IMG/VR virus record: IMGVR_UViG_3300025782_000015
Location: 1-55,335 of that record
Length of the DNA stretch: 55,335 nucleotides
Strand: one strand, 5' to 3'
DNA from: a virus
Taxonomy: Duplodnaviria; Caudoviricetes
Positions within the stretch are counted from its first letter, which is position 1. The number at the start of each line of letters is the position of its first letter. The position numbers and the translations under genes were made by a program. The notes below the pieces were generated by a model. That model saw only the letters and a list, made by a program, of their open reading frames with translations. It ran no database searches and had not been told where the DNA came from. This document shows, one piece after another, positions 10,501 to 48,681 of the stretch.

Positions 10501-13500
10501 ATCCAACATCGTCTACTGCTGGTACCAATGCCAATGGAGATTATGTTTCTATTCCTGTACAAGGCTATGCACTTTCATTACGTAAACCATTAACTCCTTG
10601 TTTCTTTGTTTACAGTGGTATCCAGTATCAGATTGATTATATTTCTAATTGGAACCCATCAGCTGGTGTTAACAATGGTACCGCAGTACTTAATCTAGAT
10701 CCTAACAAGGCAGGAGGAATAGAAAGTGTTTCACTAAGCGGAACTTTAAATACCTTCCTTCCAAATGCCAATATCCCTGTTACTATCAGTAACCCTACAT
10801 CAGCAGGCGGTCTGCCAGCAACTGGATATGTAACTACCGATGGTAGTGGTACTATACAATCAATGACTATTACCTTTTCAGGTACTGGATATGTAAGATC
10901 AACTGATGTCGGTTATAATGCCAACACCATGTCCATTAACTATGTTATAGGACAAGCTACATTTAACGCAACAATCATCAGCGGATCTATCGTAGGATTA
11001 ACAGTTAGCAATCCGGGTTCAGGTTATACAACCAGCACTCCAATTAATATCGCGGCACCATCCGGTGGCGTTGCGGCACGTGCTACTATTACCAGCGTCA
11101 ACGGAACTGGCGGCATTACTGGAGTATCAATTATTTCTGGAGGTAGTGGATACCAAACAATTCCTGCTATTACATTCGGTAACAGTAATATTGTTTATTC
11201 TACAGTGATCAAGAAAGGTTTCATTGGCACATTACCGGCATTAATAGAAACTGTTACAGCTGGTAACAGAAGTATGTTGGCCAATGACTTTACACAGATC
11301 AACGATTATGCTTATGGTATTTTTGCTACCAACGGCGGATTTATTGAAAACGTTAGTATGTTCTCATACTATTGCTGGACTTCATACTATGCCCTAAACG
11401 GCGCTCAGTTAAGAACTATTACAGGTTCTAGTGCATATGGTACCTATGGATTGATCGCTGAAGGATCAGATCCAACAGAAATTCCATTAGCTGTTACAGA
11501 GCCAGACGAGTTCCAACAAATTGCTACGATTTATAACCAACCGCCGTATACAAATATCGCAGGCGGAGTTTTAGTTTACATACAATTACAAGGTGCAATT
11601 AGTTTTGTACCATACGATGAAAGCTTCATGGATGTTAACCTAAATGGTAACTTCCAAACTTATACTGTTAAGGGTGCTACATTTATTACTACAGCATCGG
11701 GTGGTTCGTATGTTTACTCACTGAATATCGATACCGCCGGTGGAGTGTCTGGCTTAACAACAGCGATTCCAGATCAAACTTCTGTGGTATTGCGTACAGG
11801 CCCGCAATTTAGAGTAAGCGGTATCAATGCGGCAACTATTACTCGTCCAAGTACTGTTTTAACTTTATTTGAAGATCCTACCAATGTGTATCGTGTTTTA
11901 GAATATACAGACTTAGGTAATGACGTTGCCCTAGCAGAAGCTGATCAAAATTACGATTACATAAATCTAAGCCCGTACACACAGGCCAACATCTATAGAC
12001 AGGGTATTGTAAATCCAATTATTTCTAGTTCTGGTACTAACTATACAGGTTCTATTTCAACATTAACATTTGCAACACCAAGTCCATTTACCGTAACTGC
12101 GGCAGTTAATGGAACTCAAGGCACGGCGTCTTCCCCTGTATCATCATTCTTAATTGGTGGTACTGTGGGTGGTGCTATAATCCATCCGGGTATGAGCGTA
12201 AGTGGTACTGGCATTGTGTCAGGAACTTATGTAACTTTCTATTCATCTACAAGCAACTATGTTGCATTTAATCAATCACAGTATCTAACAGGCGGAACAA
12301 CATTAACATTTACTGCTGTAACTGCTACAGGTTATGCAACTATCGCAAGCGGTCACGTAGCGGGTGTAGTTATTACAGATCCAGGTGTTGGTTATAATAC
12401 TGCTCCTGCTGTAACAGCACAAACTCCTGCAGGTGGTACAAGTGCTAGTATTACAGTTAGCCTAGCAGGTGTAGTAGGCAGTAACTATTTCAAAGTTGTT
12501 GACGTTGGTGCTAAGAATTATTCACGTTTCCAATTATCGCAAGATATTAATAATAACAGTTACTACTATAGATTTGGCTACGAAGGCAAGATCTATAACA
12601 TCACAGATTACGATCCACCAACTGCAACTACCCCATGGGGTGTGCTAACAGTACAAAGTTTCAGTACTGGTACAGGACTATTAACTGAGATCGATGCTCG
12701 TACAGCATTTGCTAGTGTGGGTGCTAATACCACAGGTAGCATTACTGTACGTATATCAACACTACGTGCTACATCACACGATATGGTTGACGTTGGTACA
12801 GGTGGTTATGCAACAACCAAGATTCCAAATGACTTGTACGGACCTCCACTAATTGCTCCTCAACAAAGTCACGAAGTTATTGAGAAATCAAGAGGTCGTG
12901 TTTACTATGTAACAACTGACCAAGATGGTAATTTCCGTGTTGGTAAGTATTTTGCCGTTGATCAAGGTCGAGGTACTGTTACCATTAATGCTCCAATCAG
13001 TTTAACTGGTGTTGCAGGTTTACAATTCAAGAAGGGTGTGTTAGTTAATGAGTTTTCTAGCGATGTTACAATGGCTGAAAACTCAAATCAAGCTGTTCCA
13101 ACACAACAGGCTATTATCGGTTACCTAGATAGAAGATTAGGTACACAAGTTAGTGGTGCGTTGTTTAACGGAAGTGGCGCAACACTAGGCCCAGGATTCC
13201 TACCATTAACAGGTTCTAACGCAGGAGGTGGTTTACCTCAGATGAGTGGTTCGATCAATATGAATCAAAACACTCTGTATAATCTTCCTGTTCCAACACA
13301 ACCAAGTTATGCTGTTAACAAATCATATGCCGATACTAAGATCAGTTTGTTAGGCATGAGTGAACAACAAAATAATGGTGGACAACTTGCAGGAGTTATG
13401 ACTGGACCGTTGGTATTAGTTGGTAATCCAACAACAGCTACTTCGGTTCTATCACAAACAGCCAATGCATCAGCAACTATTCTTTATCTAAATACCAGCA

Positions 13501-15341
13501 CACTATATCTAGGTATGCAATTGAATAGCACTTCTGTAGCCACTGGTACAGTTATCAGCTCTTTTGGACCAGGTTATATACAATTAAGTGCTCCATTGGT
13601 CAGCACTATAAATTCAGGTTCGACTCTAGTATTTGATCCTATACATCAAGCCGCAACTAAACAATATGTTGATGCAACTAGTCAGATTAGTCAACTACGT
13701 GACGTTACTTTAACATCACCAGCTAATCAAGACTTGTTGATGTTGACCACTGTACAGCAACCTGTTATACAGGCCAATGGTGGTCCATTATACAATACAT
13801 CTACGATCGTAGTTAACGTATCTAATAATACAGCCAATCCAACCAATACAAGCATTGCTAGTAGTGGTGGTAGTGATGTTTCATTCACAAGAAGCGGAAA
13901 CAGCTTGACTGTTAAACTTACTGGCGGTACTGTAGGTGGTGCTAATAATCCAATCACAGACTATCATGTAAACGGTTCTGCACAAATACAGCAAAGCAAG
14001 TTGTTAATGACTGTTGCCACTGCTAGTGCAAGTAGTCCTACAGGTACACAACAACAGATCCAGGCTAACTTAGGTCTAGCACAATTTAATAGTTCTCAGT
14101 TTGCATTAACAAATGGTTGGGTAACTCACGCCACTGCTTCGAGTATCAACAACGGTGTTCCATACAATGCATTACAATGGGTTCCAGGATCTACCACAGG
14201 CGGCTTGTTAGGTAGTGTTGCATTAGGTAATGCAGATGCGGCAGTAACAGCGTTAAGCTCATCAACTGTTCGTACATGGTTGAATGTGGGAAGTTTATCA
14301 GCAGGTGGTAACTTTACTGGTGCTGTAACATTCTCCGGAGGCGTTACAGTAAACACCAACAATATGGATGTACAATCTACGTTGTATACACATAACATTT
14401 ACCCAGATGCAAGTAACACATATAGCATCGGTAGTGGCAGTGATGTTTATGCAAGTATGTATGCTACAACATTCTATGGTGCGTTTAATGGTAGTGGTGC
14501 AAATTTAAACAGTATACCAAATAGTGCGTTAAACAACAATTCAGTAACTGTTACTGCCGGCACAGGTATGAGCGGCGGCGGTAGTGTTGCACTAGGTAGC
14601 TCTGTTACATTAAGTAACGCAGGTGTTACATCGATCGCAGGGTCAACAAACGTTAGTGTAAGTGCGGCAACTGGTGGTGTAACAGTAAGTTTACCAGGTA
14701 CCCTAAGCGTAAACATTTCGGGCAGTTCAGCATCTTGTTCAGGTAACGCGGCAACTGCAAGTGCTCCATCGGGTGGTGGATCATTTATTACAAGTAGCAA
14801 TATCGGTAGCCAATCAGTTAACTATGCCACTTCTGCGGGATCTGCGGGATCTGCGGGATCTGCAAGTTCAGTACCTTGGAGCGGCATTACCGCTGTACCT
14901 AGTCTAGTATACAATAATGGCGGAACTTATAGTATTAGTATTTCAGGTAACGCGGCTACAGCTAACTATGCTGACTTGGCAGAAAAATACTTACCAGATG
15001 TGCAATATGCTCCAGGAACTGTTGTCATATTTGGCGGAGATAACGAAATCACACAAAGTACTATTGCAAATGATAGAAGAATAGCAGGTGTGATATCGAC
15101 TCAACCAGGTCTGATGATGAACAGTCAATTAGAAAACGGACAATATGTAGCGTTACAAGGTCGTGTTCCGACACAGGTAGTAGGTACTATCAAGAAAGGT
15201 GACTTAATGGTAACCAGCGACATATCAGGAGTTGCAATGGCAAACAATGATCCTAAGATGGGAACTGTAATTGGTAAGGCCTTAGAAGATTACGATAGCA
15301 CCGAAGTTGGTGTGATTGAAGTTGTTGTAGGACGAGTATAA
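7599..15341 (+). CDS. giant tail fibre / receptor-binding protein with C-terminal autoproteolytic intramolecular chaperone (Peptidase G2-like)
   Basis: N-terminal NDGTGDSIRDAFTKVNTNF; repeated (A)TK.YVD and G.GY..P motifs; C-terminal YADLAEKY...GRVP...KGD...IGKALE. Confidence 0.85.
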   Translation: MTNIIKQVINVGSQSNDGTGDSIRDAFTKVNTNFDTLYAVAGIGNGLLFTSLQDAPTTLQAQSLLVTDTSGLTITQVALVGSDGIQLTLNYSTSPATLTVASTITSLISDPAPEIQSGANLNGNGTARAINFADPQRDTDLVTKEWVEQNFLNRDALYSYDTGIPPNQSTSTIVEGSTLRHNIVLQPSVVQTSTNVGKVISVFNSSGTTATIDLAYQAWKETHLTRKDYVDTKISLQGISTIDSNTGQVNPGFGQMTGALQLFRDPNETDSPLTAATKNYVDSTGFPSQSNFFVALNGNDNRTDIPIYKRGRAWAWAFRSVNKAAQAAEAFQNTSQIVLGPYVKTITTDNFTNPVNIIQITSSSVPNGVKLVVNYDGSAGTDPFINSSIYPGIYLKGWDTGATAEIVNVVDQGGGTEYYEVVPVDYASGFNTSVKALGTTGTVTVNLLNQNLVSVPDFWVDYTFVLDNSVGGGQGTIIGSDIYYDANGNVFDNIIVEVTVPFGQSNVAIPSGNWHVYAGDFTNPSNNYGGFAVGEQLKYGQAYNKTEVSIRIESGEYDEDLPIRLSDNISIVGDEFRRSMVRPGRWPDTQRPLRTTSPYANLYFRRDTQVDGMIIVELNTLTNYASAAAVTPDGVTNNANTGVVNFTLNTGTAQTSWVNKVFVGAGGQGTITSANGSVFTVNVAENASGVQALNSSTTISTGSWQIYAPINFGYHYLKDPTKPMNLLGWEPGGGLSNPGGYNNASDILLANKQFIQEETIRYLNANGGETQYVYDQAKWKRDVTYFVEGLAYDLHVGGVSRTINLPEFYFTGNDTGVPQNELQYLESAITYIGQLASQVMTNSTGTVARYQSTVTQVFSTLPLETGSSSTVIALCSTINTILAGTNPAYNPGKFNNQLDVFLMNDATMIRYLAGQGHGGFMKVLDPYGQIKAKSPYTQTASSFSESIGRHRFAGGFFVDGFTGNMQLNPTSSTAGTNANGDYVSIPVQGYALSLRKPLTPCFFVYSGIQYQIDYISNWNPSAGVNNGTAVLNLDPNKAGGIESVSLSGTLNTFLPNANIPVTISNPTSAGGLPATGYVTTDGSGTIQSMTITFSGTGYVRSTDVGYNANTMSINYVIGQATFNATIISGSIVGLTVSNPGSGYTTSTPINIAAPSGGVAARATITSVNGTGGITGVSIISGGSGYQTIPAITFGNSNIVYSTVIKKGFIGTLPALIETVTAGNRSMLANDFTQINDYAYGIFATNGGFIENVSMFSYYCWTSYYALNGAQLRTITGSSAYGTYGLIAEGSDPTEIPLAVTEPDEFQQIATIYNQPPYTNIAGGVLVYIQLQGAISFVPYDESFMDVNLNGNFQTYTVKGATFITTASGGSYVYSLNIDTAGGVSGLTTAIPDQTSVVLRTGPQFRVSGINAATITRPSTVLTLFEDPTNVYRVLEYTDLGNDVALAEADQNYDYINLSPYTQANIYRQGIVNPIISSSGTNYTGSISTLTFATPSPFTVTAAVNGTQGTASSPVSSFLIGGTVGGAIIHPGMSVSGTGIVSGTYVTFYSSTSNYVAFNQSQYLTGGTTLTFTAVTATGYATIASGHVAGVVITDPGVGYNTAPAVTAQTPAGGTSASITVSLAGVVGSNYFKVVDVGAKNYSRFQLSQDINNNSYYYRFGYEGKIYNITDYDPPTATTPWGVLTVQSFSTGTGLLTEIDARTAFASVGANTTGSITVRISTLRATSHDMVDVGTGGYATTKIPNDLYGPPLIAPQQSHEVIEKSRGRVYYVTTDQDGNFRVGKYFAVDQGRGTVTINAPISLTGVAGLQFKKGVLVNEFSSDVTMAENSNQAVPTQQAIIGYLDRRLGTQVSGALFNGSGATLGPGFLPLTGSNAGGGLPQMSGSINMNQNTLYNLPVPTQPSYAVNKSYADTKISLLGMSEQQNNGGQLAGVMTGPLVLVGNPTTATSVLSQTANASATILYLNTSTLYLGMQLNSTSVATGTVISSFGPGYIQLSAPLVSTINSGSTLVFDPIHQAATKQYVDATSQISQLRDVTLTSPANQDLLMLTTVQQPVIQANGGPLYNTSTIVVNVSNNTANPTNTSIASSGGSDVSFTRSGNSLTVKLTGGTVGGANNPITDYHVNGSAQIQQSKLLMTVATASASSPTGTQQQIQANLGLAQFNSSQFALTNGWVTHATASSINNGVPYNALQWVPGSTTGGLLGSVALGNADAAVTALSSSTVRTWLNVGSLSAGGNFTGAVTFSGGVTVNTNNMDVQSTLYTHNIYPDASNTYSIGSGSDVYASMYATTFYGAFNGSGANLNSIPNSALNNNSVTVTAGTGMSGGGSVALGSSVTLSNAGVTSIAGSTNVSVSAATGGVTVSLPGTLSVNISGSSASCSGNAATASAPSGGGSFITSSNIGSQSVNYATSAGSAGSAGSASSVPWSGITAVPSLVYNNGGTYSISISGNAATANYADLAEKYLPDVQYAPGTVVIFGGDNEITQSTIANDRRIAGVISTQPGLMMNSQLENGQYVALQGRVPTQVVGTIKKGDLMVTSDISGVAMANNDPKMGTVIGKALEDYDSTEVGVIEVVVGRV
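14832..14863 (+). repeat. 9-bp in-frame tandem repeat (TCTGCGGGA)x3.5 encoding SAG
   Basis: Three perfect copies plus TCTGC. Confidence 0.9.
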
Positions 15342-15342
15342 T

Positions 15343-18300
15343 ATGGCGGCACCAGTTTGGGCTACCCAGGCAGGATTCCTGGGTACATTCACACAAGAAA
15401 TTCAGTTCGTTGCAACTGGATCTACTATCACTTTGCAACTGCAAACTGTTTCGCCCGACGCTACATTCTCAATCATTAGCGGTTCTCTCCCTAGCGGTTT
15501 ACATGTCTACCCAGGCAACGGTATCATCTATGGTACTCCGTTTTACACCAATCAAGTTGTAACAAGCAATTTTGTAGTACGTGCAACTAATTCCGACGGT
15601 GTTGCTGATAGAACATTTAGTATGGATATTGCAGGACCTACAGACCCAGTCTGGGTTACTAATTCAGGCCTACTACCTGTTGGACCAAATGGAGAGTTAT
15701 ACGCATTGAATCTAAGTCGCGTATACATCCAGCTAAATGCTACGACTCCTAAATTGCCAAATGGTCACTTAATGCGTTACTATCTTAAGAGTAATGCAGG
15801 TCAATTACCGCCAGGACTAACAATAAATCAACAGGGATTGATATCTGGTGTAGTTGATGATGTTCTTAGTTTAGATTACCTGGCTAACATTGACGGCGGG
15901 TATGATGAAGAATTTTATGACTCTGCTCCTTACGATCACGTTGTAATATTAAGAACTGAAAAGCAAGGCCGACCAGAAGCAATAGCTAAAATTTATGAAT
16001 TTACTGTGGTCGCCACAGATGGTGTATCTAGCAGTCAACAACAATTTTTAATACGAGTAGAAGATCCAAACTCTCTTAGAGCAGATAACGTAGAGTTGAA
16101 TGACAAGAGTGTTACTGTCATAGGAACTCTAGGCTCTAACACTCTACAAGTAACCAGCAACACTAGTACTACGATGCCTAGTCTTGGTTCTGCTATATTT
16201 GGGCCGCAGGATTCTACAGGTGCTCCGTTAGTCGTACAAGAAAATCCAGCAAGCTATGTTGAATCTATAAACTTTACTAATAAGACATTTACTATTAATT
16301 CAACATTGATTAGTGACTACAATGGCAGTTTGTTCTATAGAGCTCCTTTACTCAATGAAGGTATAGGAGAAAACACAGCATTATCCGGTGATAGCTCTGT
16401 ATTCAAATCAGACATTGGATTCACTGTTGCCCCTGAATGGATTGATAGCAACGGTGTTGCATTACCGAAGGTTGCTAATTTAGGAACATTTAGATCTAAC
16501 AACTATCAAATAATCCAATTAGAAACATACGATCCTAATCCTTATGGAGGGTCAGTAACCTACGATTGGTTGTCTCGTGTTTACAATCCTGAAATACTAA
16601 TGGTCACAGATTCTGTGTTCAATGCCGCAGGTATACCAACAGCAAACCTATTTGGTCAATCTAATTTGTATGTCAAATCTGTATCTGCTGTACCTACTGT
16701 AGGTATGCAATTTAAATTAGATGGTTATGTAAATGGTGCCGACAATAAAATTTATACTATAGCAAGTGTAACAGCCTATGCTGGCGGTTATGCTCTCGGG
16801 CTAGGAGTTTATACAAAGTATATTGGTAATCTAGCAAACAACGCACAAACTCCTACTATAGGATACAATACTACATATAACTTACCTCCACAGATAACTG
16901 CAACCGCAAGCGGAGATGCAGGATCCACTGTATTATCTATTGTTAATATACTTGCCGTTACTGTAGGAATGACTGTAACTGGCCAAGGTATACAAAACTA
17001 TTCAAAGATACTGAACATCAATTCAGTAACACGTACTGCTACACTAAGCGAACCGTTATTGTCAGATCTTATTAATGTAAAATTAACTTTTGGCCCTGGT
17101 CTAGGAGATCTATATCAGTATAGAAATACTATAAGCAATAGCGTACATTATGTCGTATGGACTGACAACGGTTGGGTTGATTACGAAGAAGATCCGGGAT
17201 TAATTGCATCAGGTCCTGGTGTTATCAAACTTAGCACTAAAATTTTAGATACTACAAATATCTACACAGGTAGTAAAGCAATTCACCCTTCGGGATTGAA
17301 GTTAAATCCTGTGACAGCTGAATTGTACGGTGTACTACCATATCAACCTAGCTATAGCGAAACTTATAAATTTACCGTTCGTGTAACTAAACAAGACTAT
17401 TCAACAGGCGATATAGTATACAAAGATCAAATGTTCCTATTGACATTACAGGGGCAAGTACAAACTCAAATAGAATTTATTTCTACAGGATCAGTTGGAG
17501 TTCTAGTACCAGGTCAACCCTCTGAATTACAAGTAGTTGCACAGCATACTGACAACAGCAATTTAAGCATCAACTATATACAAACAGGTGGCAAGTTACC
17601 GCAGGGAATCACGCTACAGCGAGACGGAACTTTAGTTGGCACAGTACCTTATGGAAATCTTACATCTATCGATGTTAATTCTATTGGGTTCAATAAATTT
17701 AGTCTAGATCAAGGATCTACTACATTTGATAAAGAATTTTCATTCAATGTAACTGCCAATGACGTATATCTGTTGTCTAGTGTGACCAAGACATTTAATG
17801 TAAAGATCAACGAATATACTCCTGTACTATACACAGGAATATATTTCAAACCATTGATGGCAGTATCCAGTCGTCAATATTTTAGAGATCTAGTACAAAA
17901 TTATAATGTATTCAGTACAGACTTGTTGTATCGTCCAGAAGATCCTAACTTTGGTGTACAAAATTCTGTCAAGATGTATTTGGAATATGGGTTACAAGAA
18001 CTTAATCTAGACTACTATATGCCGGCGTTGGTTAACTATTTTAAACGTAAGCGTTTTTACTTTGGAGAAATAACCAGTGCCATAGCACAAGATTCTCTAG
18101 GCAACGATGTATACGAAGTTGTTTATGTAAATGTCATAGACGATCAGATGAACGGTAATATCAATCCCGGTGCTAGTTTCTCTGAAAAGGTAGGAGGAGT
18201 AGTAACTACATTCTATCCAGACTCAACTGGTAATATGCAAACAGCATTAGAAAATATTTCCGTGAGCACTAATGCTAGCGGTGTCATAAGTGTTGATTCG

Positions 18301-18669
18301 ACCTTTAGACCAAAATTCATGCAGTCTATACAAAGTTCAACAGGAACTCCGTTAGGCTTTGTTAAAGCAGTTATCCTGTGTTATGCACTTCCCGGTAAAG
18401 CATCAGAGATCATTTCACGAATTAATACTCTAAACTTTGACTTCAAACAACTAGATTTTGATGTTGATAGGATCTACATAGAGAAAAGTTTAACCACTAC
18501 TTCAACAGCATATTTGCTGTTTGGTACTGGTGCAAGTTCTTCTGGTTTCAACTTGCAAACAGAGGATGGTATTTTGGATCCTGCAAGCCCAGAATACAAT
18601 GCACAATACATACAATTTATCGCCGATCAGGACATCACTACAGAAGCAGGCGTAGTTATTACCATATAA
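15343..18669 (+). CDS. baseplate/virion protein with putative Ig-like (He_PIG) repeats
   Basis: Repeated G.LP.GL.....G.I.G motifs followed by F.V.ATD/N; adjacent to fibre gene. Confidence 0.75.
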   Translation: MAAPVWATQAGFLGTFTQEIQFVATGSTITLQLQTVSPDATFSIISGSLPSGLHVYPGNGIIYGTPFYTNQVVTSNFVVRATNSDGVADRTFSMDIAGPTDPVWVTNSGLLPVGPNGELYALNLSRVYIQLNATTPKLPNGHLMRYYLKSNAGQLPPGLTINQQGLISGVVDDVLSLDYLANIDGGYDEEFYDSAPYDHVVILRTEKQGRPEAIAKIYEFTVVATDGVSSSQQQFLIRVEDPNSLRADNVELNDKSVTVIGTLGSNTLQVTSNTSTTMPSLGSAIFGPQDSTGAPLVVQENPASYVESINFTNKTFTINSTLISDYNGSLFYRAPLLNEGIGENTALSGDSSVFKSDIGFTVAPEWIDSNGVALPKVANLGTFRSNNYQIIQLETYDPNPYGGSVTYDWLSRVYNPEILMVTDSVFNAAGIPTANLFGQSNLYVKSVSAVPTVGMQFKLDGYVNGADNKIYTIASVTAYAGGYALGLGVYTKYIGNLANNAQTPTIGYNTTYNLPPQITATASGDAGSTVLSIVNILAVTVGMTVTGQGIQNYSKILNINSVTRTATLSEPLLSDLINVKLTFGPGLGDLYQYRNTISNSVHYVVWTDNGWVDYEEDPGLIASGPGVIKLSTKILDTTNIYTGSKAIHPSGLKLNPVTAELYGVLPYQPSYSETYKFTVRVTKQDYSTGDIVYKDQMFLLTLQGQVQTQIEFISTGSVGVLVPGQPSELQVVAQHTDNSNLSINYIQTGGKLPQGITLQRDGTLVGTVPYGNLTSIDVNSIGFNKFSLDQGSTTFDKEFSFNVTANDVYLLSSVTKTFNVKINEYTPVLYTGIYFKPLMAVSSRQYFRDLVQNYNVFSTDLLYRPEDPNFGVQNSVKMYLEYGLQELNLDYYMPALVNYFKRKRFYFGEITSAIAQDSLGNDVYEVVYVNVIDDQMNGNINPGASFSEKVGGVVTTFYPDSTGNMQTALENISVSTNASGVISVDSTFRPKFMQSIQSSTGTPLGFVKAVILCYALPGKASEIISRINTLNFDFKQLDFDVDRIYIEKSLTTTSTAYLLFGTGASSSGFNLQTEDGILDPASPEYNAQYIQFIADQDITTEAGVVITI

Positions 18670-40917: not shown

Positions 40918-41697
40918 ATGAAAAAGATACCAAAAATTTATTTAGATATGGACGGAGTACTAGCAGACTTTTTTACAGAGTATGCTAAACTTGCCGGTAT
41001 TACTAGCGGCAACTATAGAGATATTCCTCCCGCCAAAACAGATCCTACCCTAAACAAAATGGTAGGTACAGATTTCTTTGCGCGATTACCAGAATGCCGT
41101 AATGCTCAACAAGTAGTCGAGATGGCATTAGAGTTTGCCAAGTCCCATGGTGCTAGCGGTTACTGTATTTGTTCTAGTCCACTTCGTGGAGATCATAAGA
41201 ATTCCGAAGTCCAAAAGAAGATATGGATTAAGAAGCATTTAAGACCTCAACCAGTTGAAATAGTTATTGCGTCTGATAAGTCAAAGTATGCAAGACAAGC
41301 AGATGGCACACCTAACATCTTAATCGATGACAGAGGTAGCAACATCAGCGGATGGGAAGCGGCTGGCGGTATTGGAATCAAATATCAAGCAGATGAGGAT
41401 AGTCTAAAAACTATCGTCAAAGGTCTTAGCCGTGCTAACAAAATACTAAGTGGCGGCGAGAGAGAACCTGAAGATCAAGCAGACGACACACCGGCACCTA
41501 AAAAATCTCCATACTATGATTTAACAGGTATTGCACCCGGTCATCCAACTAGTGCGGCAGATGTTGCTGAAAATATCGGTGGTGCTACGACTGGCTCGGG
41601 CGCAGTAGGTAGTGGAGGAGGACCTGCTGTAGTTGTAGGTGGAAAAGGTAAGGGCAAAAGAGCCAAGGTAATTAGACGAGCTAGTCTAGTAGTTTAA
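40918..41697 (+). CDS. HAD-family 5'(3')-deoxyribonucleotidase-like protein with C-terminal extension
   Basis: YLDMDGVLADF, K..W, ILIDD; upstream TTGCAA-N17-TATAAT with ATG 7 nt after. Confidence 0.85.
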   Translation: MKKIPKIYLDMDGVLADFFTEYAKLAGITSGNYRDIPPAKTDPTLNKMVGTDFFARLPECRNAQQVVEMALEFAKSHGASGYCICSSPLRGDHKNSEVQKKIWIKKHLRPQPVEIVIASDKSKYARQADGTPNILIDDRGSNISGWEAAGGIGIKYQADEDSLKTIVKGLSRANKILSGGEREPEDQADDTPAPKKSPYYDLTGIAPGHPTSAADVAENIGGATTGSGAVGSGGGPAVVVGGKGKGKRAKVIRRASLVV

Positions 41698-42869: not shown

Positions 42870-43178
42870 ATGAGCAAAGTATTCGGAGCACCAGAGCAGG
42901 CAAAAATCAAGCAACTAATTTCAGAAGGTGTAACAGTACTTCAAGAAATTGAAGATTTGAATGAAGGCTTGAGCGATACAATTAAAGCTGTCGCAGAAGA
43001 ACTAGAAGTAAAACCTAGTATTATTAAAAAAGCGATCAAGATCGCACAAAAGGGCGATTGGGAACGTGTATTCACAGAGTTTGACGACTTAGAAACAATC
43101 GTCGATATCAGTGGACATGCTATTCGACAAAGCGATTATGATTCAGAAAATCCAAACCGCAGTACCGATAATGGTTGA
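42870..43178 (+). CDS. T4 DsbA-like double-stranded DNA-binding protein
   Basis: Helical pattern KIKQLI.E...I......D.I..VAEEL.VK.....KAI; SD AGGAG. Confidence 0.6.
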   Translation: MSKVFGAPEQAKIKQLISEGVTVLQEIEDLNEGLSDTIKAVAEELEVKPSIIKKAIKIAQKGDWERVFTEFDDLETIVDISGHAIRQSDYDSENPNRSTDNG

Positions 43179-43464
43179 CAATTTTTTAAAACCCACATTT
43201 GATTGGATCCGAGATGATTACTCTAGTAATAAGTTTCGTTTTTGTATTGAGTTGCTGGCTTGGGCTATCAGCATTGGCTGTAGCATTACAATGGCGTTCA
43301 CTGTACCCAACCCTCCGCTTCTTGTTTTGTATCCCGTTTGGATTTCTGGTTGCGCTATGTACGCTTGGGCTTCTTATACTAGGAAATCATTTGGGATGCT
43401 GGCTAACTACATCTTGCTTGTAAGCATTGATAGTGTAGGCCTAATTAGAATGCTGTTGAAATAA
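43171..43464 (+). CDS. three-TM membrane protein
   Basis: Hydrophobic segments; start ATG 43171. Confidence 0.65.
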   Translation: MVDNFLKPTFDWIRDDYSSNKFRFCIELLAWAISIGCSITMAFTVPNPPLLVLYPVWISGCAMYAWASYTRKSFGMLANYILLVSIDSVGLIRMLLK

Positions 43465-43472
43465 GGAAACTT

Positions 43473-44087
43473 GTGTTTAAATATTTTAATGGTCCTGGGG
43501 TTTTTATTGATAAACTAACAGACGAACAACTGTTGCCTATAGAGCAAGAAATATGTTCTATACAAAATGATTTTTCTAAAGCAACACCGTTTAACAAAAA
43601 TCTAGCAGGTAACATTAAAAAAGAATATCAGTTGTTTAGTAGTTTTAAATATTTAGAATCTTTAGTATCGCCGTATTGTATCGAATACCAAAAAGAATTT
43701 AATTATCCTGGGGCAGAAATACCATTGTTTTTAAACGGAGCATGGGTTAATTTTCAAACAGCAGGAGAATTTAATCCTATACACGACCACGTAGGTGTTT
43801 TTAGTTTTGTAATATGGCACAAGATTCCGTATTTAATAAAAGACGAAATAGACAACAGTCCAGGAAAAGATTCTAACTATAACGTAAGTGGCAATTTTAC
43901 TTTTTATTACACAGATACATTGGGCGATATAAAAGCATATAATATTCCGGCCGATCAATCGATGGAAAATAGTATAATGGTATTTCCATCTAAACTGAAG
44001 CACAGCGTTCATCCTTTTTATAGTTCAGATGAATATAGAATCAGTGTCGCTGGAAATTTTAGTGTCAAATTACCTAGTATAAAATAA
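43473..44087 (+). CDS. 2OG-Fe(II) oxygenase-like protein
   Basis: WVNFQ, NPIHDH, FPS.L.H.V.P, RISVAGN. Confidence 0.8.
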   Translation: MFKYFNGPGVFIDKLTDEQLLPIEQEICSIQNDFSKATPFNKNLAGNIKKEYQLFSSFKYLESLVSPYCIEYQKEFNYPGAEIPLFLNGAWVNFQTAGEFNPIHDHVGVFSFVIWHKIPYLIKDEIDNSPGKDSNYNVSGNFTFYYTDTLGDIKAYNIPADQSMENSIMVFPSKLKHSVHPFYSSDEYRISVAGNFSVKLPSIK

Positions 44088-44088
44088 A

Positions 44089-44718
44089 ATGCAATACGGT
44101 GTACAGTTATTCGATAATGTTGGTGCTATAAACGCACAACTGACTCCCCAACAACTTGAACCTGTTTGGGATGAAATAAAAGAAATACAATCGGATTGGA
44201 GTACTGCTAGTCCTGCAAATAAAGTGTTAGCAGGCAATATAGAACATGAATATAATTTAACCAAGTGCCATAAACACGTAGAAGAATTATTATTGCCTTT
44301 GGTATATGAATACGATCAAAAGTTTAAATTACTAGATGATTTTCATATAACAAGAACACAACCGGATATAGCACTTGCTAGTCTATGGGTTAATTTTCAA
44401 AAGAAACATGAATTTAATCCATTGCACTATCATGATGGCTTATTAAGTTTCGTAATATGGATGGATAGTCCGTTTGATATTCGAGATGAAATGTCCAGAC
44501 CTAGCAGTCTTAAGTCTAACGCTAACATACCGGGTCATTTTAGTTTAACCTATATTAATTCCGTAGGTAAATTAGGAATAGTAAATCTTCCAGTTGATCG
44601 ATCATGGAATGGCAGGATGTTGTTGTTTCAATCTAAGATGCATCATTGTGTATATCCATTTTATACCAGCGACGAGTATCGAATATCTGTCAGTGGCAAT
44701 TTTATATTTGACATTTGA
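44089..44718 (+). CDS. 2OG-Fe(II) oxygenase-like protein (paralogue)
   Basis: WVNFQ, NPLHYH, H.VYPF, RISVSGN. Confidence 0.8.
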   Translation: MQYGVQLFDNVGAINAQLTPQQLEPVWDEIKEIQSDWSTASPANKVLAGNIEHEYNLTKCHKHVEELLLPLVYEYDQKFKLLDDFHITRTQPDIALASLWVNFQKKHEFNPLHYHDGLLSFVIWMDSPFDIRDEMSRPSSLKSNANIPGHFSLTYINSVGKLGIVNLPVDRSWNGRMLLFQSKMHHCVYPFYTSDEYRISVSGNFIFDI

Positions 44719-44750
44719 TCAGTTAGAGTAAATAATAGTGAGTAAGGCAA

Positions 44751-44802
44751 AGCGAGCCATAAGTCGCTAAGAAGAAGGTTAGCCGGCCATAAGCGGTAGG
44801 AG
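44751..44802 (+). promoter_or_regulatory. tandem RNA hairpin operator upstream of DNA polymerase
   Basis: AGCGA-GCCATAAG-TCGCT and GCCG-GCCATAAG-CGGT, 30 nt apart, abutting SD AGGAG. Confidence 0.75.
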
Positions 44803-44808
44803 AAAACA

Positions 44809-47481
44809 ATGAGTTATGTAGATGCGATCTGGGATCGCGACAAAGATATCGTACGTGTTGTAGAACGAGATCCAAAAAAGGGCAGAATCTTTATCGATTA
44901 TCCCGCCCGTTATCAATTTTATTATCCAGACCATAAAGGAAAGTACACATCCATTTATGGCGAATCTTTAAGCAAGGTAACAACCAAAAGCTTCAAAGAC
45001 TTTATCAAAGAACAAAAAATCCACAGCAGTCGCAAACTTTATGAAAGCGATATCAACGCTGTATTCCGTGTACTAGAAGAAAAATACTTAGGTGTTGATG
45101 CACCTAAACTACATACTGCCTTTTTCGATATTGAGGTAGACTTCGATCCAGAACGTGGCTATGCAAGTCCAGAGGACGCATTCATGCCAATTACTGCGAT
45201 TGCTGTTTACCTGCAATGGATGGAAACAATGGTCTGTTTGGCTATACCTCCAAAGACATTGACTATGGCACAAGCACAAGAACAAGTCAAAGAATTTCCT
45301 AATACGCACTTGTTTGAAACAGAAGCAGAAATGTTAGATACATTTTTAAACTTGATCGAAGATGCAGACATATTAAGTGGTTGGAACTCGGAAGGTTTTG
45401 ATATTCCTTATACAGTTAACCGTGTTACTAAAGTGCTCAGCAAAGAAGATACAAGACGCTTCTGTCTATGGGATCAATTCCCAAAGAAGAGAGAATATGA
45501 AAAATACGGAAAGAGTGCAGTCACTTATGATCTTGTGGGCAGAGTACACCTCGACTCATTGGAACTATATAGAAAATACACATATGAAGAACGCCACACA
45601 TACAGACTTGATGCTATTGGCGAAATGGAAATCGGAGAGAACAAAACAGTTTATGAAGGAACTCTCGACCAGCTCTACAATAACGATTTCAGAAAGTTTA
45701 TAGAATATAACAGACAAGACTGTGCATTGTTGGACAAACTAGATAAGAAATTAAAATTCTTAGATCTAGCAAACACACTTGCCCATGAAAATACAGTATT
45801 ACTACAAACAACAATGGGTGCTGTAGCTGTAACTGAGCAGGCTATTATCAATGAAGCTCATCATAGAGGACTCATTGTTCCTAGTCGCCCAAAACGTGAT
45901 GACACAGAAAACAATCAGGCCGCAGGTGCTTATGTTGCATTTCCTAAAAAAGGATTACATGATTGGATTGGATCAATGGACATTAACTCACTGTATCCAT
46001 CTGTGATTCGAGCATTAAACATGGGTCCAGAAACTATCATAGGACAGCTACGCCCAACTAAAACTGACGAATATATCGAAGAACAAATGACCTTAAACAA
46101 AAAGTCGTTTGCCGCGGCATGGGAAGATAAGTTTGGTACGTTTGAATATGAAGCAGTAATGTCCCAAGATCGTGCGTTTGAAATCACTGTTGATTGGGAA
46201 AGTGGCGGTAGCGATACTATGAGTGCCGCTGAAGTTTATAGGATCATCTATGAAAGTAATCAACCATGGATGTTAAGTGCAAATGGTACAATCTTTACGC
46301 ATGAGTCAGATGGTGTTATCCCTGGCTTGTTAGCCCGTTGGTACAAAGAGCGTAAAGACATGCAAAAGAAACTAAAGGAAGCCATCGATGCTGGTAACAA
46401 AATTGAAGAAGAGTATTGGGATAAGCGGCAACTTGTTAAAAAGATTAACCTCAACAGTCTCTATGGTGCTATTCTTAATGCTGGTTGCCGTTTCTTTGAT
46501 AAGCGTATTGGTCAATCAACCACTCTTACTGGACGTCAAATCGCCCGTCATATGGCTAGTAAGATAAATGAAGTAATTACAGGCGAGTATGACTATAAAG
46601 GTAAGAGCATTATCTATGGTGATACAGACTCTGCTTACTTTAGCGCATACAATACCTTAAAGACTGAGATCGCCAAAGGACAAATTCCTTGGGATAAAGA
46701 TACTGTCGTTCAACTGTATGACACTATTTCAGATACTGTCAACGCAACATTCCCAGACTTTATGCTAAATGCTTTCCACTGTCCTAAATCACGTGGAGAT
46801 GTTATCAAAGCAGGTCGTGAAATCGTTGCTATCAAAGGCTTATTCATTACCAAGAAGCGTTATGCGGTTCTGTATTATGATAAGGACGGTAAGAGACAAG
46901 ACGTTGGCGATAAGCCAGGTAAGATTAAAGCTATGGGTTTAGACTTGAAGCGTTCAGATACTCCAGAATTTATGCAAAAGTTCTTGGAAGAAATTCTAAC
47001 AAACGTGCTTAATGGTGCAGAAGAAAAAGATATCCTAGACCGCATTATGGAATTCCGCACCGAGTTTAAAGCCAGGCCGGGTTGGGAGAAAGGTAGTCCA
47101 AAACGTGCTAACAATATTACCGACTATCAAGAACGTGAAAGAAAGACTGGAAAGATTACCATTCCAGGACATGTACGTGCTAGTATGAATTGGAATACCT
47201 TAAAGACCATGCACGGTGACAAATACAGCCAACAGATTGTTGACGGTATGAAAGTTATTGTTTGTAAGGTAAAAGATAATCCATTAGGGTACACAAGTAT
47301 TGCGTATCCAGTTGATGAATTGCGGTTGCCCAAATGGTTCCAAGAACTACCATTTGATCATGCAGAAATGGAAACTACTATTATCAATAACAAGTTAGAA
47401 AATCTCATTGGTGTGTTGGAGTGGGATTTGGCATCAACAGTACAAAACAACACATTTGGCAAATTGTTCTCATTTGATTGA
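44809..47481 (+). CDS. family B DNA polymerase (T4 gp43-like)
   Basis: Exo DIEVD; DINSLYPS, KINLNSLYG, YGDTDS, KKRY. Confidence 0.97.
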   Translation: MSYVDAIWDRDKDIVRVVERDPKKGRIFIDYPARYQFYYPDHKGKYTSIYGESLSKVTTKSFKDFIKEQKIHSSRKLYESDINAVFRVLEEKYLGVDAPKLHTAFFDIEVDFDPERGYASPEDAFMPITAIAVYLQWMETMVCLAIPPKTLTMAQAQEQVKEFPNTHLFETEAEMLDTFLNLIEDADILSGWNSEGFDIPYTVNRVTKVLSKEDTRRFCLWDQFPKKREYEKYGKSAVTYDLVGRVHLDSLELYRKYTYEERHTYRLDAIGEMEIGENKTVYEGTLDQLYNNDFRKFIEYNRQDCALLDKLDKKLKFLDLANTLAHENTVLLQTTMGAVAVTEQAIINEAHHRGLIVPSRPKRDDTENNQAAGAYVAFPKKGLHDWIGSMDINSLYPSVIRALNMGPETIIGQLRPTKTDEYIEEQMTLNKKSFAAAWEDKFGTFEYEAVMSQDRAFEITVDWESGGSDTMSAAEVYRIIYESNQPWMLSANGTIFTHESDGVIPGLLARWYKERKDMQKKLKEAIDAGNKIEEEYWDKRQLVKKINLNSLYGAILNAGCRFFDKRIGQSTTLTGRQIARHMASKINEVITGEYDYKGKSIIYGDTDSAYFSAYNTLKTEIAKGQIPWDKDTVVQLYDTISDTVNATFPDFMLNAFHCPKSRGDVIKAGREIVAIKGLFITKKRYAVLYYDKDGKRQDVGDKPGKIKAMGLDLKRSDTPEFMQKFLEEILTNVLNGAEEKDILDRIMEFRTEFKARPGWEKGSPKRANNITDYQERERKTGKITIPGHVRASMNWNTLKTMHGDKYSQQIVDGMKVIVCKVKDNPLGYTSIAYPVDELRLPKWFQELPFDHAEMETTIINNKLENLIGVLEWDLASTVQNNTFGKLFSFD

Positions 47482-47510
47482 TTGACAAATCTTCAAAATC
47501 TAAATATAAT
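47482..47510 (+). promoter_or_regulatory. overlapping sigma70 and late promoter
   Basis: TTGACA-N17-TATAAT with TAAATA at 47501-47506. Confidence 0.8.
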
Positions 47511-47528
47511 ATAAGAAAGGAATTTAAC

Positions 47529-48263
47529 ATGAAAGCTATACTACAAGACATCGTTTCACATACACACAATCTAGGATTTTTAGAGATTGTGAAAATCACT
47601 GGTGACGAAAAAACAGTTAAGATTAACTCAATGGCAGATGACCGTACAGTCATTATGTCGGCTGAAACTGCCGGACCTTATCCAGATATCCAAGGTATAT
47701 TTGGTATGCCACAGTTAAACAAATTAAAGATTCATTTAGACTGCCCAGAATACAAAGAAGATGCAAAGATTGAAGTTGTTAAGGGTCAACGTAACGGAGT
47801 AGATATTCCAGTAGGTTTACATTTTGAAAACAAAGCAGGTGACTTTAAAAACGACTATCGCTTTATGAATATGGATGTTATTAACGCCAAGTTAACTATT
47901 CCAAAGTTTAACGGTGCTACATGGGGTGTTACTATTAGCCCAACAGTATCAGCAATACAGCGTTTCAACTTTCAAGCAACTGCTAATAATGAGCATACAG
48001 AATTCACAGTCAAACTAGACGGTGATAAATTGAAATTCTCGTTTGGTGACTTGTCAACACACGCTGGCGAATTTGTTTTTGCAGATGGTGTTACTGGAAA
48101 ACTTAGAACACAATTAAGCTGGCCTGTTGCACAGTTACAAAGCATCTTAAAGATTGCCGATGTAAACAACACAACTATAAGTTTTAGTGATGACGGTGCT
48201 CTAAAAGTTACATTAGACAGCGGCTTGGCAACATACGAATATATTTTACCAGCACGAAACTAA
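47529..48263 (+). CDS. DNA sliding clamp (gp45/PCNA-like)
   Basis: About 244 aa, two-domain alpha/beta pattern, C-terminal YEYILP; directly after PolB. Confidence 0.7.
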   Translation: MKAILQDIVSHTHNLGFLEIVKITGDEKTVKINSMADDRTVIMSAETAGPYPDIQGIFGMPQLNKLKIHLDCPEYKEDAKIEVVKGQRNGVDIPVGLHFENKAGDFKNDYRFMNMDVINAKLTIPKFNGATWGVTISPTVSAIQRFNFQATANNEHTEFTVKLDGDKLKFSFGDLSTHAGEFVFADGVTGKLRTQLSWPVAQLQSILKIADVNNTTISFSDDGALKVTLDSGLATYEYILPARN

Positions 48264-48264
48264 T

Positions 48265-48681
48265 ATGATAAAAGGTTTACAGGGATCCCAAGGTGTTATA
48301 GTTGATGGCGGTAACATGTCGTTGCCGTACATCAATCCGAACGATAGTAATAGCTTTCAAGGTCTGATGAGAATCAGAGGTACCGATATCCAATATTATG
48401 ACAATGGTGTTTGGAACCTGTTACCTTCAAGCTATGCAACCATAAGGCTTGACGGATCGGCTGATAATCTGTTACAATGGGTAAGACAAAAGCAACAGGA
48501 AGAAGCCGAGTTTAAAACTATTCTCAGTAATCATGATCATCCTGCTATACAGATTGCACGTGAAAACCTAAATAAAGCTATTGCCGCAGTAAAACAAGCA
48601 GAATTACAATTAAAAATAACAACTAAACTTGCCGAAGATACTTATGTAGGCAATGAAGCAGAGGAATTACAGGCACCATGA
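48265..48681 (+). CDS. hypothetical protein
   Basis: 138-aa ORF inside the operon. Confidence 0.65.
   Translation: MIKGLQGSQGVIVDGGNMSLPYINPNDSNSFQGLMRIRGTDIQYYDNGVWNLLPSSYATIRLDGSADNLLQWVRQKQQEEAEFKTILSNHDHPAIQIARENLNKAIAAVKQAELQLKITTKLAEDTYVGNEAEELQAP

Follow-up and report, generated by a model that had tools for sequence, protein, structure and literature searches.

Twin mini-pseudoknots before the polB gene of an uncultured freshwater giant phage and its relatives: a candidate translational operator

The window analysed here is the whole of IMG/VR virus record IMGVR_UViG_3300025782_000015, a stretch of Caudoviricetes DNA of 55,335 bases. It contains polB, a gene for a family B DNA polymerase (PolB) of the type of T4 and RB69 gp43, and this report concerns the leader of about 65 nt that directly precedes the gene. 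Two small hairpins with the same 8-nt loop, GCCATAAG, stand there in tandem, followed by the Shine-Dalgarno (SD) sequence and the start codon (Table 1). The best reading of this mRNA leader is a translational operator that acts in cis where ribosomes bind the polB message, and the comparisons described below indicate that each hairpin is part of a miniature pseudoknot.

PolB is 50% identical to the DNA polymerase of Sinorhizobium phage Phosso and 43-45% identical to those of other giant phages, and among proteins of solved structure it is best matched by DNA polymerases about 900 amino acids (aa) long (E 3e-59). The leader belongs to a gp43-family polymerase gene and lies between a promoter-like site and the SD. 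That promoter-like site is one of the two best sigma-70-like sites within positions 43000-48500, and it places the predicted transcript start near 44743, 3 nt before the first pseudoknot strand. DNA nearly identical to that of the window is present in freshwater and lake metagenome runs; none was found among cultured phages.

Table 1. Features of the polB leader, followed by neighbouring genes and sites (positions in the window; ORF, open reading frame)
Feature	Position	Strand	Remarks
Sigma-70-like promoter, TTGACA-17 nt-AATAAT	44708-44736	+	11 of 12 consensus positions; consensus match only
GGC, 5' strand of pseudoknot helix 1	44746-44748	+	Pairs with loop bases 44756-44758 (GCC)
Unit 1 hairpin, AGCGA[GCCATAAG]TCGCT	44751-44768	+	5-bp stem, 8-nt loop; loop bases 1-3 in pseudoknot
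Linker between the units	44769-44776	+	Purine-rich, sequence variable (alignment)
GGT, 5' strand of pseudoknot helix 2	44777-44779	+	Pairs with loop bases 44786-44788 (GCC)
Unit 2 hairpin, GCCG[GCCATAAG]CGGT	44782-44797	+	4 bp including one G.U (outer pair), 8-nt loop
Shine-Dalgarno, AGGAG	44798-44802	+	Starts 1 nt after the 3' arm of unit 2
polB	44809-47481	+	890-aa family B DNA polymerase, T4/RB69 gp43 type; ATG at 44809-44811
Long ORF	7599-15341	+	2580 aa
Long ORF	15343-18669	+	1108 aa
Deoxyribonucleotidase ORF	40918-41697		PHROG 2643, 5'-3' deoxyribonucleotidase (E 2.7e-21)
Gene upstream of the oxygenase pair	43111-43464		Ends ...SIDSVGLIRMLLK; no Pfam or PHROG family matched at the thresholds used
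2OG-Fe(II) oxygenase	43473-44087		PF13759, E 1.7e-8
2OG-Fe(II) oxygenase, paralogue	44089-44718		PF13759, E 2.7e-7
ORF after polB	47478-48263		phrog_12062, function unknown
Sigma-70 consensus, TTGACA-17-TATAAT	47482-47510		12 of 12 positions; at the polB stop codon

An initial annotation of the window had reported two hairpins with identical 8-nt loops 30 nt apart, the second abutting the SD. Both are present as described, and their loops begin at 44756 and 44786, a distance of exactly 30 nt. The 8-mer of the loop occurs three times in the window, compared with 1.76 expected, and 30 of 100 shuffles also reach three. Only one pair of identical-loop hairpins (at least 4 bp, 8-nt loop, 16-60 nt apart) is present in the window, the pair in the polB leader, and the same criteria gave 13 pairs across 200 shuffled windows with both strands counted. 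This amounts to about 0.07 chance pairs per window, and so the window by itself is no more than suggestive.

A PolB search of viral contigs returned 594 stretches encoding relatives, from which the best 80 (80-97% identity) were taken for comparison. The two-hairpin leader is kept in all 80 of them. The automated parse recognised it in the window and in 79 of the 80; the 80th locus (L079; our loci are numbered with the prefix L) has a U.U at the closing pair of hairpin 2 and was moved to the tandem group on inspection by eye. In an alignment of the 61 distinct leaders, 95.8% of the cells are paired. Column shuffling lowers this to 75.7%, with none of 500 shuffles as high as the real alignment, and sliding the partner by one to three columns lowers it to 19.6-45.1%. 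The covariation score is 0.654, and with slid partners it is 0.025-0.132. Ten of 13 pairs have changed on both sides, and in the unit 1 stem all five have. RNAalifold, with no structure supplied, gave the same two hairpins with compensatory changes in nine of nine predicted pairs, and each of the four pairs it predicts in unit 2 has such changes.

Pairs of the G.U type are common on the + strand (GU in 25 of 61 leaders at one stem pair and UG in 48 of 61 at a pseudoknot pair), and the structure is therefore strand-specific, i.e., that of a sense-strand RNA. The initial annotation had taken the compensatory differences between the two stems as evidence for RNA structure. Such evidence is given by the comparison between phages; a difference between two stems of one genome is not itself covariation. 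Conservation of the twin hairpins in 113 loci excludes chance as their origin, and the strong support from the relatives indicates that the hairpins are real, conserved RNA structures.

Each unit is, however, more than the hairpin originally described. Upstream of each stem there is an RGY triplet that is complementary to loop bases 1-3, at a distance from the stem of 2 nt in unit 1 and 0-4 nt in unit 2. With this pairing each unit becomes an H-type pseudoknot of about 23 nt, which consists of 5'-RGY, about 2 nt, the first arm of the stem (some 5 nt), the loop RCY-N-N-A-A-N of 8 nt and the second stem arm. In the 61 leaders 98.4% of the helix 1 cells are paired, and the pair types are GC 53 and AU 7 at the first position, GC 59 at the second, and UG 48, CG 9 and UA 4 at the third; the few non-pairs trace to two rows that are shifted in the alignment. 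The two stems covary, and so does the pseudoknot helix.

The triplet of unit 1 can also be defined from the sequence alone, as the nearest RGY, and it is then complementary to the loop in all 113 tandem loci of the PolB tree. Four triplet/loop states occur, namely GGT/GCC (79 loci), GGC/GCC (18), AGT/GCT (12) and GGT/ACC (4). The switch from G-C to A-U corresponds to six changes on the PolB tree, and all six independent contrasts go in the same direction (sign test, p 0.031); six may be an overcount, because the leader could recombine independently of polB. The AGT/GCT state is found in at least four different stem and unit-2 contexts. The third pseudoknot pair changed 16 times on the tree and never to a mismatch. 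The GGY and GCC of unit 2 are unvarying within the tandem clade; the SD-proximal unit of a sister clade (L094, L095, L115 and L150) has AGT with GCT at the same spacing, and that of clade L131-L164 has GGC with GCC. The two loops do not pair with each other, since in the 12 loci with AGT/GCT in unit 1 the loop of unit 2 is still GCC.

Each unit has a 3-bp helix, a 2-nt loop, a 5-bp helix and a 5-nt A-rich loop, and the two helices follow each other without an intervening nucleotide. Classical H-type pseudoknots have this layout, and the RGY helix would stack coaxially on the stem. By the rules of Pleij, loop 1 (2 nt across the 5-bp helix) and loop 3 (5 nt across the 3-bp helix) should be able to span their grooves. 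The five loop bases that remain after the pairing, two of which are invariant adenines, would cross the minor groove of the 3-bp helix. The pairing of the RGY triplet with the loop, which makes each unit a pseudoknot, is new here, and the element is absent from Rfam. Rfam 15 had no match in the whole window at gathering thresholds and none in 44690-44840 at E up to 10, and a full-text literature search, which did not extend to supplements, found no description of a twin-pseudoknot polB leader.

The loops are conserved in the relatives, as the initial annotation had expected. Among 91 distinct unit 1 loops, position 1 is G in 86 and A in 5, position 2 is C in all 91, position 3 is C in 85 and T in 6, position 4 is A in 90 and G in 1, position 5 is T in 74 and C in 17, positions 6-7 are AA in all 91, and position 8 can be any base. 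The 82 distinct unit 2 loops have G, C and C at positions 1, 2 and 3 without exception and AA at positions 6-7 (82 of 82); positions 4 and 5 are free, and position 8 is again any base.

The predicted hairpin energies are -6.4 kcal/mol for unit 1 and -5.4 kcal/mol for unit 2, and only one of 200 shuffles folds as well as unit 1. The minimum-energy fold from the putative start at 44743 to the AUG consists of exactly the two hairpins; in the minimum-energy fold of 44740-44830, which includes coding sequence, the hairpins do not appear (z +0.95). The 3' end of stem 2 is 8-19 nt from the start codon, and in 112 of the 116 tandem leaders examined the first base of an SD-like tetramer falls between -2 and +3 nt relative to that end. 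In the L131/L143 clade the 3' arm (CGG or TGG) overlaps GGAG, which puts the SD inside the stem. In 91 of 93 distinct leaders the two loops are 28-30 nt apart, whether the distance from GGY to loop 2 is 5, 6, 8 or 9 nt; the length of the linker therefore compensates. Such a fixed spacing fits a two-site architecture that acts as one unit.

The leader is present in a single copy, and polB is the only gene that carries it. A tandem covariance model scores 73.8 bits at 44742-44812 of the window, with the next match at 11.3 bits, and a single-unit covariance model gives 29.3 and 24.9 bits at the two leader units, with the next match at 12.8 bits. The contigs of five relatives were searched whole (331,570, 200,604, 141,321, 128,309 and 119,428 bases, the first rated 93% complete), and in each of them just the two adjacent polB-leader units match at E <0.002; one additional match among the five contigs has 13.5 bits and E 0.5. 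The scan for further hairpins of this kind that was proposed with the initial annotation therefore returned only the polB-leader units with good scores. A home-made scan gave six matches in the window, versus about two expected, and the idea of other copies was rejected as chance; the four matches outside the leader are weak 4-6-bp stems within coding sequence and have <13 bits with the single-unit model. A DNA pattern search that was blind to polB found at least 119 stretches. Of the 80 loci listed, 36 match the tandem model (E <=0.01), and all 36 lie directly before the N-terminus of a PolB.

The distribution of the element can be followed on a FastTree tree of PolB. There are 201 fetched loci that carry PolB, and 198 are in the tree after three rows of <500 aa were left out. 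Seven loci with 45-49 bits in the tandem model (L172, L178, L191, L203, L219, L221 and L243) were moved to the tandem group. The tandem leader then defines one clade of 113 rows (support 99) whose PolB sequences are 67-100% identical to that of the window. The sister clade has 72 rows, namely 17 with unit 2 only, L096 and L098, L163 and L165, and 51 that are leaderless. The 17 rows have the SD-proximal unit together with a different upstream hairpin, GTTGG[CTATA]CCAAC or GCTC[ACGTCAC]GAGC, and L096 and L098 have a unit with a 9-nt loop. Unit 2, the SD-proximal unit, is consequently present in the 113 tandem rows and the 17 unit-2-only rows, is more widely conserved than unit 1 and is the older of the two. 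The tandem architecture put forward initially fits the fixed loop spacing of 28-30 nt; identical twins are confined to the clade of the window (PolB >=67% identical). In other words, the identical upstream twin is peculiar to the window's own clade, and one lineage has lost the leader.

Eight of the sister-clade loci (L131, L132, L142-L144, L151, L154 and L164) have a covarying hairpin GCTC[ACGTYAC]GAGC about 60-40 nt before polB, with GCCC/GGGC and GTTC/GAAC variants and a conserved GAGTCG in front of it, and in L143 the loop of this hairpin starts 29 nt from loop 2 (manual count). Two further loci, L163 (424 onwards) and L165 (424-1504), were considered as a second loss of the leader. This was rejected, for the leader is displaced: the full leader (upstream hairpin, unit and GGAG) is about 1 kb upstream of polB, where it precedes an inserted 341-aa ORF whose stop codon overlaps the TTG start of polB (TTGA) and for which no Pfam or PHROG family was found. 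The leader thus still heads the polB translation unit in these two loci, and their polB is probably translationally coupled to the gene that took over the operator.

Four short contigs in prokaryotic genome assemblies (L286-L289) carry the same phage polB, and one of them has the tandem leader (64.9 bits). A single unit, GGUUG[GCCACAAA]CAACC, directly followed by AGGAG, is present at 1163-1208 of L288, a short contig in a bacterial metagenome-assembled genome (polB 68% identity; 27.4 bits). The labels of the four assemblies, Crocinitomicaceae, Thermoplasmata (an archaeon), Halobacteroidaceae and Bacteroidia, are mutually incompatible, and so they are probably binning artefacts and give no reliable clue to the host. 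In a subclade with the tandem leader, polB starts with TTG instead of ATG (L192, L232, L243, L172, L178, L191, L203, L219, L221 and L211).

The leader of many relatives is preceded by an AAATA box, which was found upstream of 84 of 107 distinct leaders, compared with 0.16 expected per 55 nt. This box is probably the -10 element and the place where polB transcription begins, within the last part of the upstream gene. Examples are CTAAATATTT and TTAAATAATA, and in 42 of the 84 leaders GAG is present 5 nt after the box. Leaders that lack the box have ATAAGTA, ATAATTAA or a TTGACA-17-TATAAT site; in L169 and L226, TTGACA-17-TATAAT or TATACT is at the promoter position.

One lake metatranscriptome run contains a single piece on 43900-46000 of the window, a 135-nt insert that covers 44676-44810 with 100% identity in a contig of 167 nt (adapter-insert-adapter, depth 3.5). 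An RNA library thus contains the leader. DNA carry-over or PCR copies may account for the piece, however, and no start, end or strand can be read from it. The insert begins upstream of the predicted promoter, 32 nt before the -35 box, which would imply some read-through transcription if it is RNA.

What might this leader do? We regard it as a genuine cis-regulatory RNA that is missing from RNA catalogues. Unit 2 reaches the SD or overlaps it. Unit 1 lies a fixed 29 +/- 1 nt upstream and would be at the very 5' end of the transcript. Binding of a factor would stabilise the folded units, loading of the 30S subunit would be blocked, and synthesis of the polymerase would be capped; with two sites the response would be steeper. 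The likeliest factor would be polymerase that is not engaged on DNA, with repression as in gene 43 of T4, RB69 and RB49. This proposal of autogenous repression by PolB itself is the one that we favour, although we would give it somewhat less than an even chance. It draws on the control of a single gene, the membership of PolB in the gp43 family, the T4-like layout, the SD within the 3' arm in RB49 and the invariant AA of the loop. The comparisons establish the fold and its conservation, its confinement to polB and its place at the ribosome-binding site; that control is by repression, which effector acts and where the transcript starts are inferred.

The resemblance to the T4 operator, to which the initial annotation had drawn attention, holds for the dimensions. 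The T4 gene 43 record has TATAAT, then AGCCU[AAUAACUC]GGGCU, then 18 nt including the SD and then AUG; its hairpin has the 5-bp/8-nt geometry of unit 1 and a nearly equal energy (-6.3 kcal/mol, compared with -6.4 and -5.4 here). In our own reading of the RB49 gene 43 record the hairpin is CUUUC[GUAAAU]GAAGG, with the SD in the 3' arm. Like the gene-43 operators, the polB leader is located directly after a promoter and before or overlapping the SD, and would control a single gene. According to the part of PMC3014915 that deals with gp43 binding, the 3' AC/AA loop bases are key, and they occur as -UAAC- in T4 and RB69 and as -UAAA- in RB49. The 3' part of the polB-leader loops is also A-rich, with AA invariant and many loops reading AUAAA or AUAAG. 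The loop sequence as such is new, as had been supposed: its consensus, RCC-NN-AA-N, differs from those of T4 and RB49, and the polB leader has two units, each with a covarying 3-bp pseudoknot, whereas the gene-43 operator is a single hairpin with another loop.

Several observations weigh against control by PolB. The PolB of the window is only 26% identical to T4 gp43 (over 707 aa), and the single-unit model, run unfiltered with an E cutoff of 10, matched neither the T4 nor the RB49 gene-43 leader. The part of PMC3014915 concerned with the gene-43 operator states that there is no evidence of a pseudoknot in it and that some T4-related gp43 proteins do not autoregulate. Five cultured giant phages (Phosso, Atu_ph07, Vibrio phage 2.275.O, GAP32 and SCTP-2) lack the element before polB, with 10.2 bits as the best unit score, and the more distant polymerases that were examined are also without it. 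In the nested clade of 51 leaderless rows polB abuts the upstream gene, and so the control is dispensable. Only two PolB columns, N165D and V341T, separate this clade from the leader-bearing ones; with this single loss event there is no sign of a dedicated RNA-binding surface in PolB, although such a surface would not be expected if the RNA binds in the DNA cleft. Finally, the conserved bases (GG, CC and AA) are all accounted for by the fold, which leaves little that would indicate a ligand.

This last point is in keeping with an element that needs no effector. The 5' pseudoknots could stabilise the polB message against a 5'-end-dependent RNase, or they could be a fixed ribosome-loading feature such as a standby site, an enhancer or a constant damper, and we regard this as a less likely but still appreciable possibility. 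The element starts within a few nt of the predicted transcript start, the fold alone explains every conserved base, and the different upstream hairpin of the sister clades, at a similar spacing, suggests that structure is needed and not a specific sequence; the 135-nt insert in the lake metatranscriptome would be a weak hint in the same direction. However, only one gene in genomes of about 330 kb has the element, and one would expect to find a general stabiliser before several early genes. The 28-30-nt spacing and the invariant loop adenines exceed the needs of a protective 5' hairpin, the close tie with the SD speaks for control at initiation, and the metatranscriptome piece starts 32 nt upstream of the -35 box, so that the leader is not always 5'-terminal if the piece is RNA. 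The same structural and positional evidence that speaks for PolB would also serve an operator for another trans-acting factor, either a phage RNA-binding regulator other than PolB or a protein of the host, for example an RNase adaptor or ribosomal protein S1. T4 uses RegA and RegB on messages of replication genes, according to the portion of PMC3014915 that treats them, and many ORFs around polB are without a known family. Nevertheless, this is unlikely: autoregulation is more economical than a dedicated regulator that has one target in some 330 kb of genome, the analysis yielded no candidate partner, and the gene upstream of the leader in the relatives (43111-43464 in the window) had no Pfam or PHROG match at the thresholds used, and hence none to a RegA-like family.

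Each mini-pseudoknot might instead be an aptamer for a small molecule or ion, e.g., a metabolite of the nucleotide pool, with ligand-stabilised unit 2 masking the SD and the two units acting cooperatively as a tandem riboswitch. PreQ1-I riboswitches are H-type pseudoknots of about 34 nt at the SD, and guanidine-II (mini-ykkC) riboswitches consist of two tandem hairpins with conserved loops, the second of which holds the SD. The polB leader recalls this architecture in its very small size, its position next to the SD, its A-rich loop bases, which are suited to contacts in the minor groove, its tandem hairpins and its combination of variable stems with fixed loops; its core bases are invariant across PolB identities of 62-100%, its spacing is fixed, and no correlated change in PolB was seen. 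It differs in that the 5' flank, not a 3' tail, pairs with the loop and that the loops are not paired together. We think a riboswitch quite unlikely, since no Rfam family matched even at E up to 10, the spread is narrow (one gene in one uncultured phage clade, absent from the cultured relatives examined), the helices would stack with no intervening nucleotide and no obvious pocket, and positions 4-5 of the unit 2 loop vary freely; moreover, we know of no riboswitch class that controls a replicative polymerase. That the repeats act as DNA (as an origin of replication, a promoter element or a palindrome bound by a protein) or are a chance duplication is very improbable indeed. A single copy beside replication genes, just downstream of a promoter-like site, would be compatible with a role as DNA, but the frequent G.U pairs of the sense strand would become A.C mismatches in its complement, the loops are fixed and it is the stems that covary freely, which is the opposite of a sequence-specific palindromic operator, covariation in a pseudoknot has no meaning in a DNA duplex, and the distance to the SD and the AUG is constrained. 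A replication origin at the leader was considered separately and rejected: the cumulative GC skew is monotonic, with no turn at 44.7 kb.

Other known systems share single traits with the polB leader. According to the relevant part of PMC3014915, the T4 gene 32 leader has an H-type pseudoknot that takes part in autogenous translational repression of the message for a replication protein. An H-type pseudoknot in the leader is common to the polB leader, the T4 gene 32 operator and the rpsO/S15 pseudoknot operator. The gene-32 pseudoknot, however, is about 40-70 nt upstream and nucleates the cooperative coating of an unstructured A/U-rich stretch by the single-stranded DNA-binding protein, whereas the polB leader is occupied by two pseudoknots as far as the SD and precedes a polymerase gene; the sequences of the two were compared via Rfam only. 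The thrS operator of Escherichia coli has two anticodon-arm-like hairpins that are bound by dimeric threonyl-tRNA synthetase, with the proximal one beside the SD. Two hairpins with the same loop motif, and autogenous repression by an enzyme with a nucleic acid substrate, would be the points of likeness; the polB leader shows no tRNA mimicry, and its loops have 8 nt and are pseudoknotted.

Small H-type pseudoknots are also the preferred high-affinity RNA ligands of the primer-template cleft of HIV-1 reverse transcriptase. Such pseudoknot RNAs were reportedly selected against this enzyme by Tuerk, MacDougal and Gold in 1992, using systematic evolution of ligands by exponential enrichment. These aptamers are artificial RNAs for an unrelated polymerase family; by analogy, the precedent fits the idea of a natural polymerase aptamer. 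Going further, the units might be the smallest natural aptamers yet seen (about 23 nt each), forming a cooperative riboswitch that ties polymerase synthesis to a small molecule of the infected cell (e.g., a metabolite of the nucleotide pool or of a modified base), or else natural pseudoknot aptamers that sit where a family B polymerase holds its primer-template, one enzyme reading both sites. This proposal is a long shot.

To our knowledge, autogenous translational control of a replicative DNA polymerase is known only from T4 and a few close relatives, and we know of no RNA-protein structure of such control. If the leader is controlled by PolB, then the principle would extend to a large clade of uncultured freshwater giant phages with a PolB that shares only 26% identity with T4 gp43, and the leader would contain an RNA that serves a family B polymerase as a natural pseudoknot aptamer. 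Should a small molecule be the effector, then the leader would represent a new and unusually small riboswitch class. In either case its roughly 65 nt form a well-defined target for binding and probing experiments and for structural work, for which natural compensatory mutants exist, and it could be used as a marker of the phage clade and as a compact regulatory part.

Some features of the surrounding DNA deserve mention. The two adjacent 2OG-Fe(II) oxygenase paralogues separate the polB leader from the gene that is its direct neighbour in most relatives, and the pair looks like an insertion that carried in its own sigma-70-like promoter. At the other end of polB, the perfect sigma-70 consensus at the stop codon overlaps the start of the next ORF. 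With the deoxyribonucleotidase ORF, some 3 kb before polB, a gene of nucleotide-pool metabolism lies close to the replication module, and two very long ORFs (7599-15341 and 15343-18669) are adjacent to each other.

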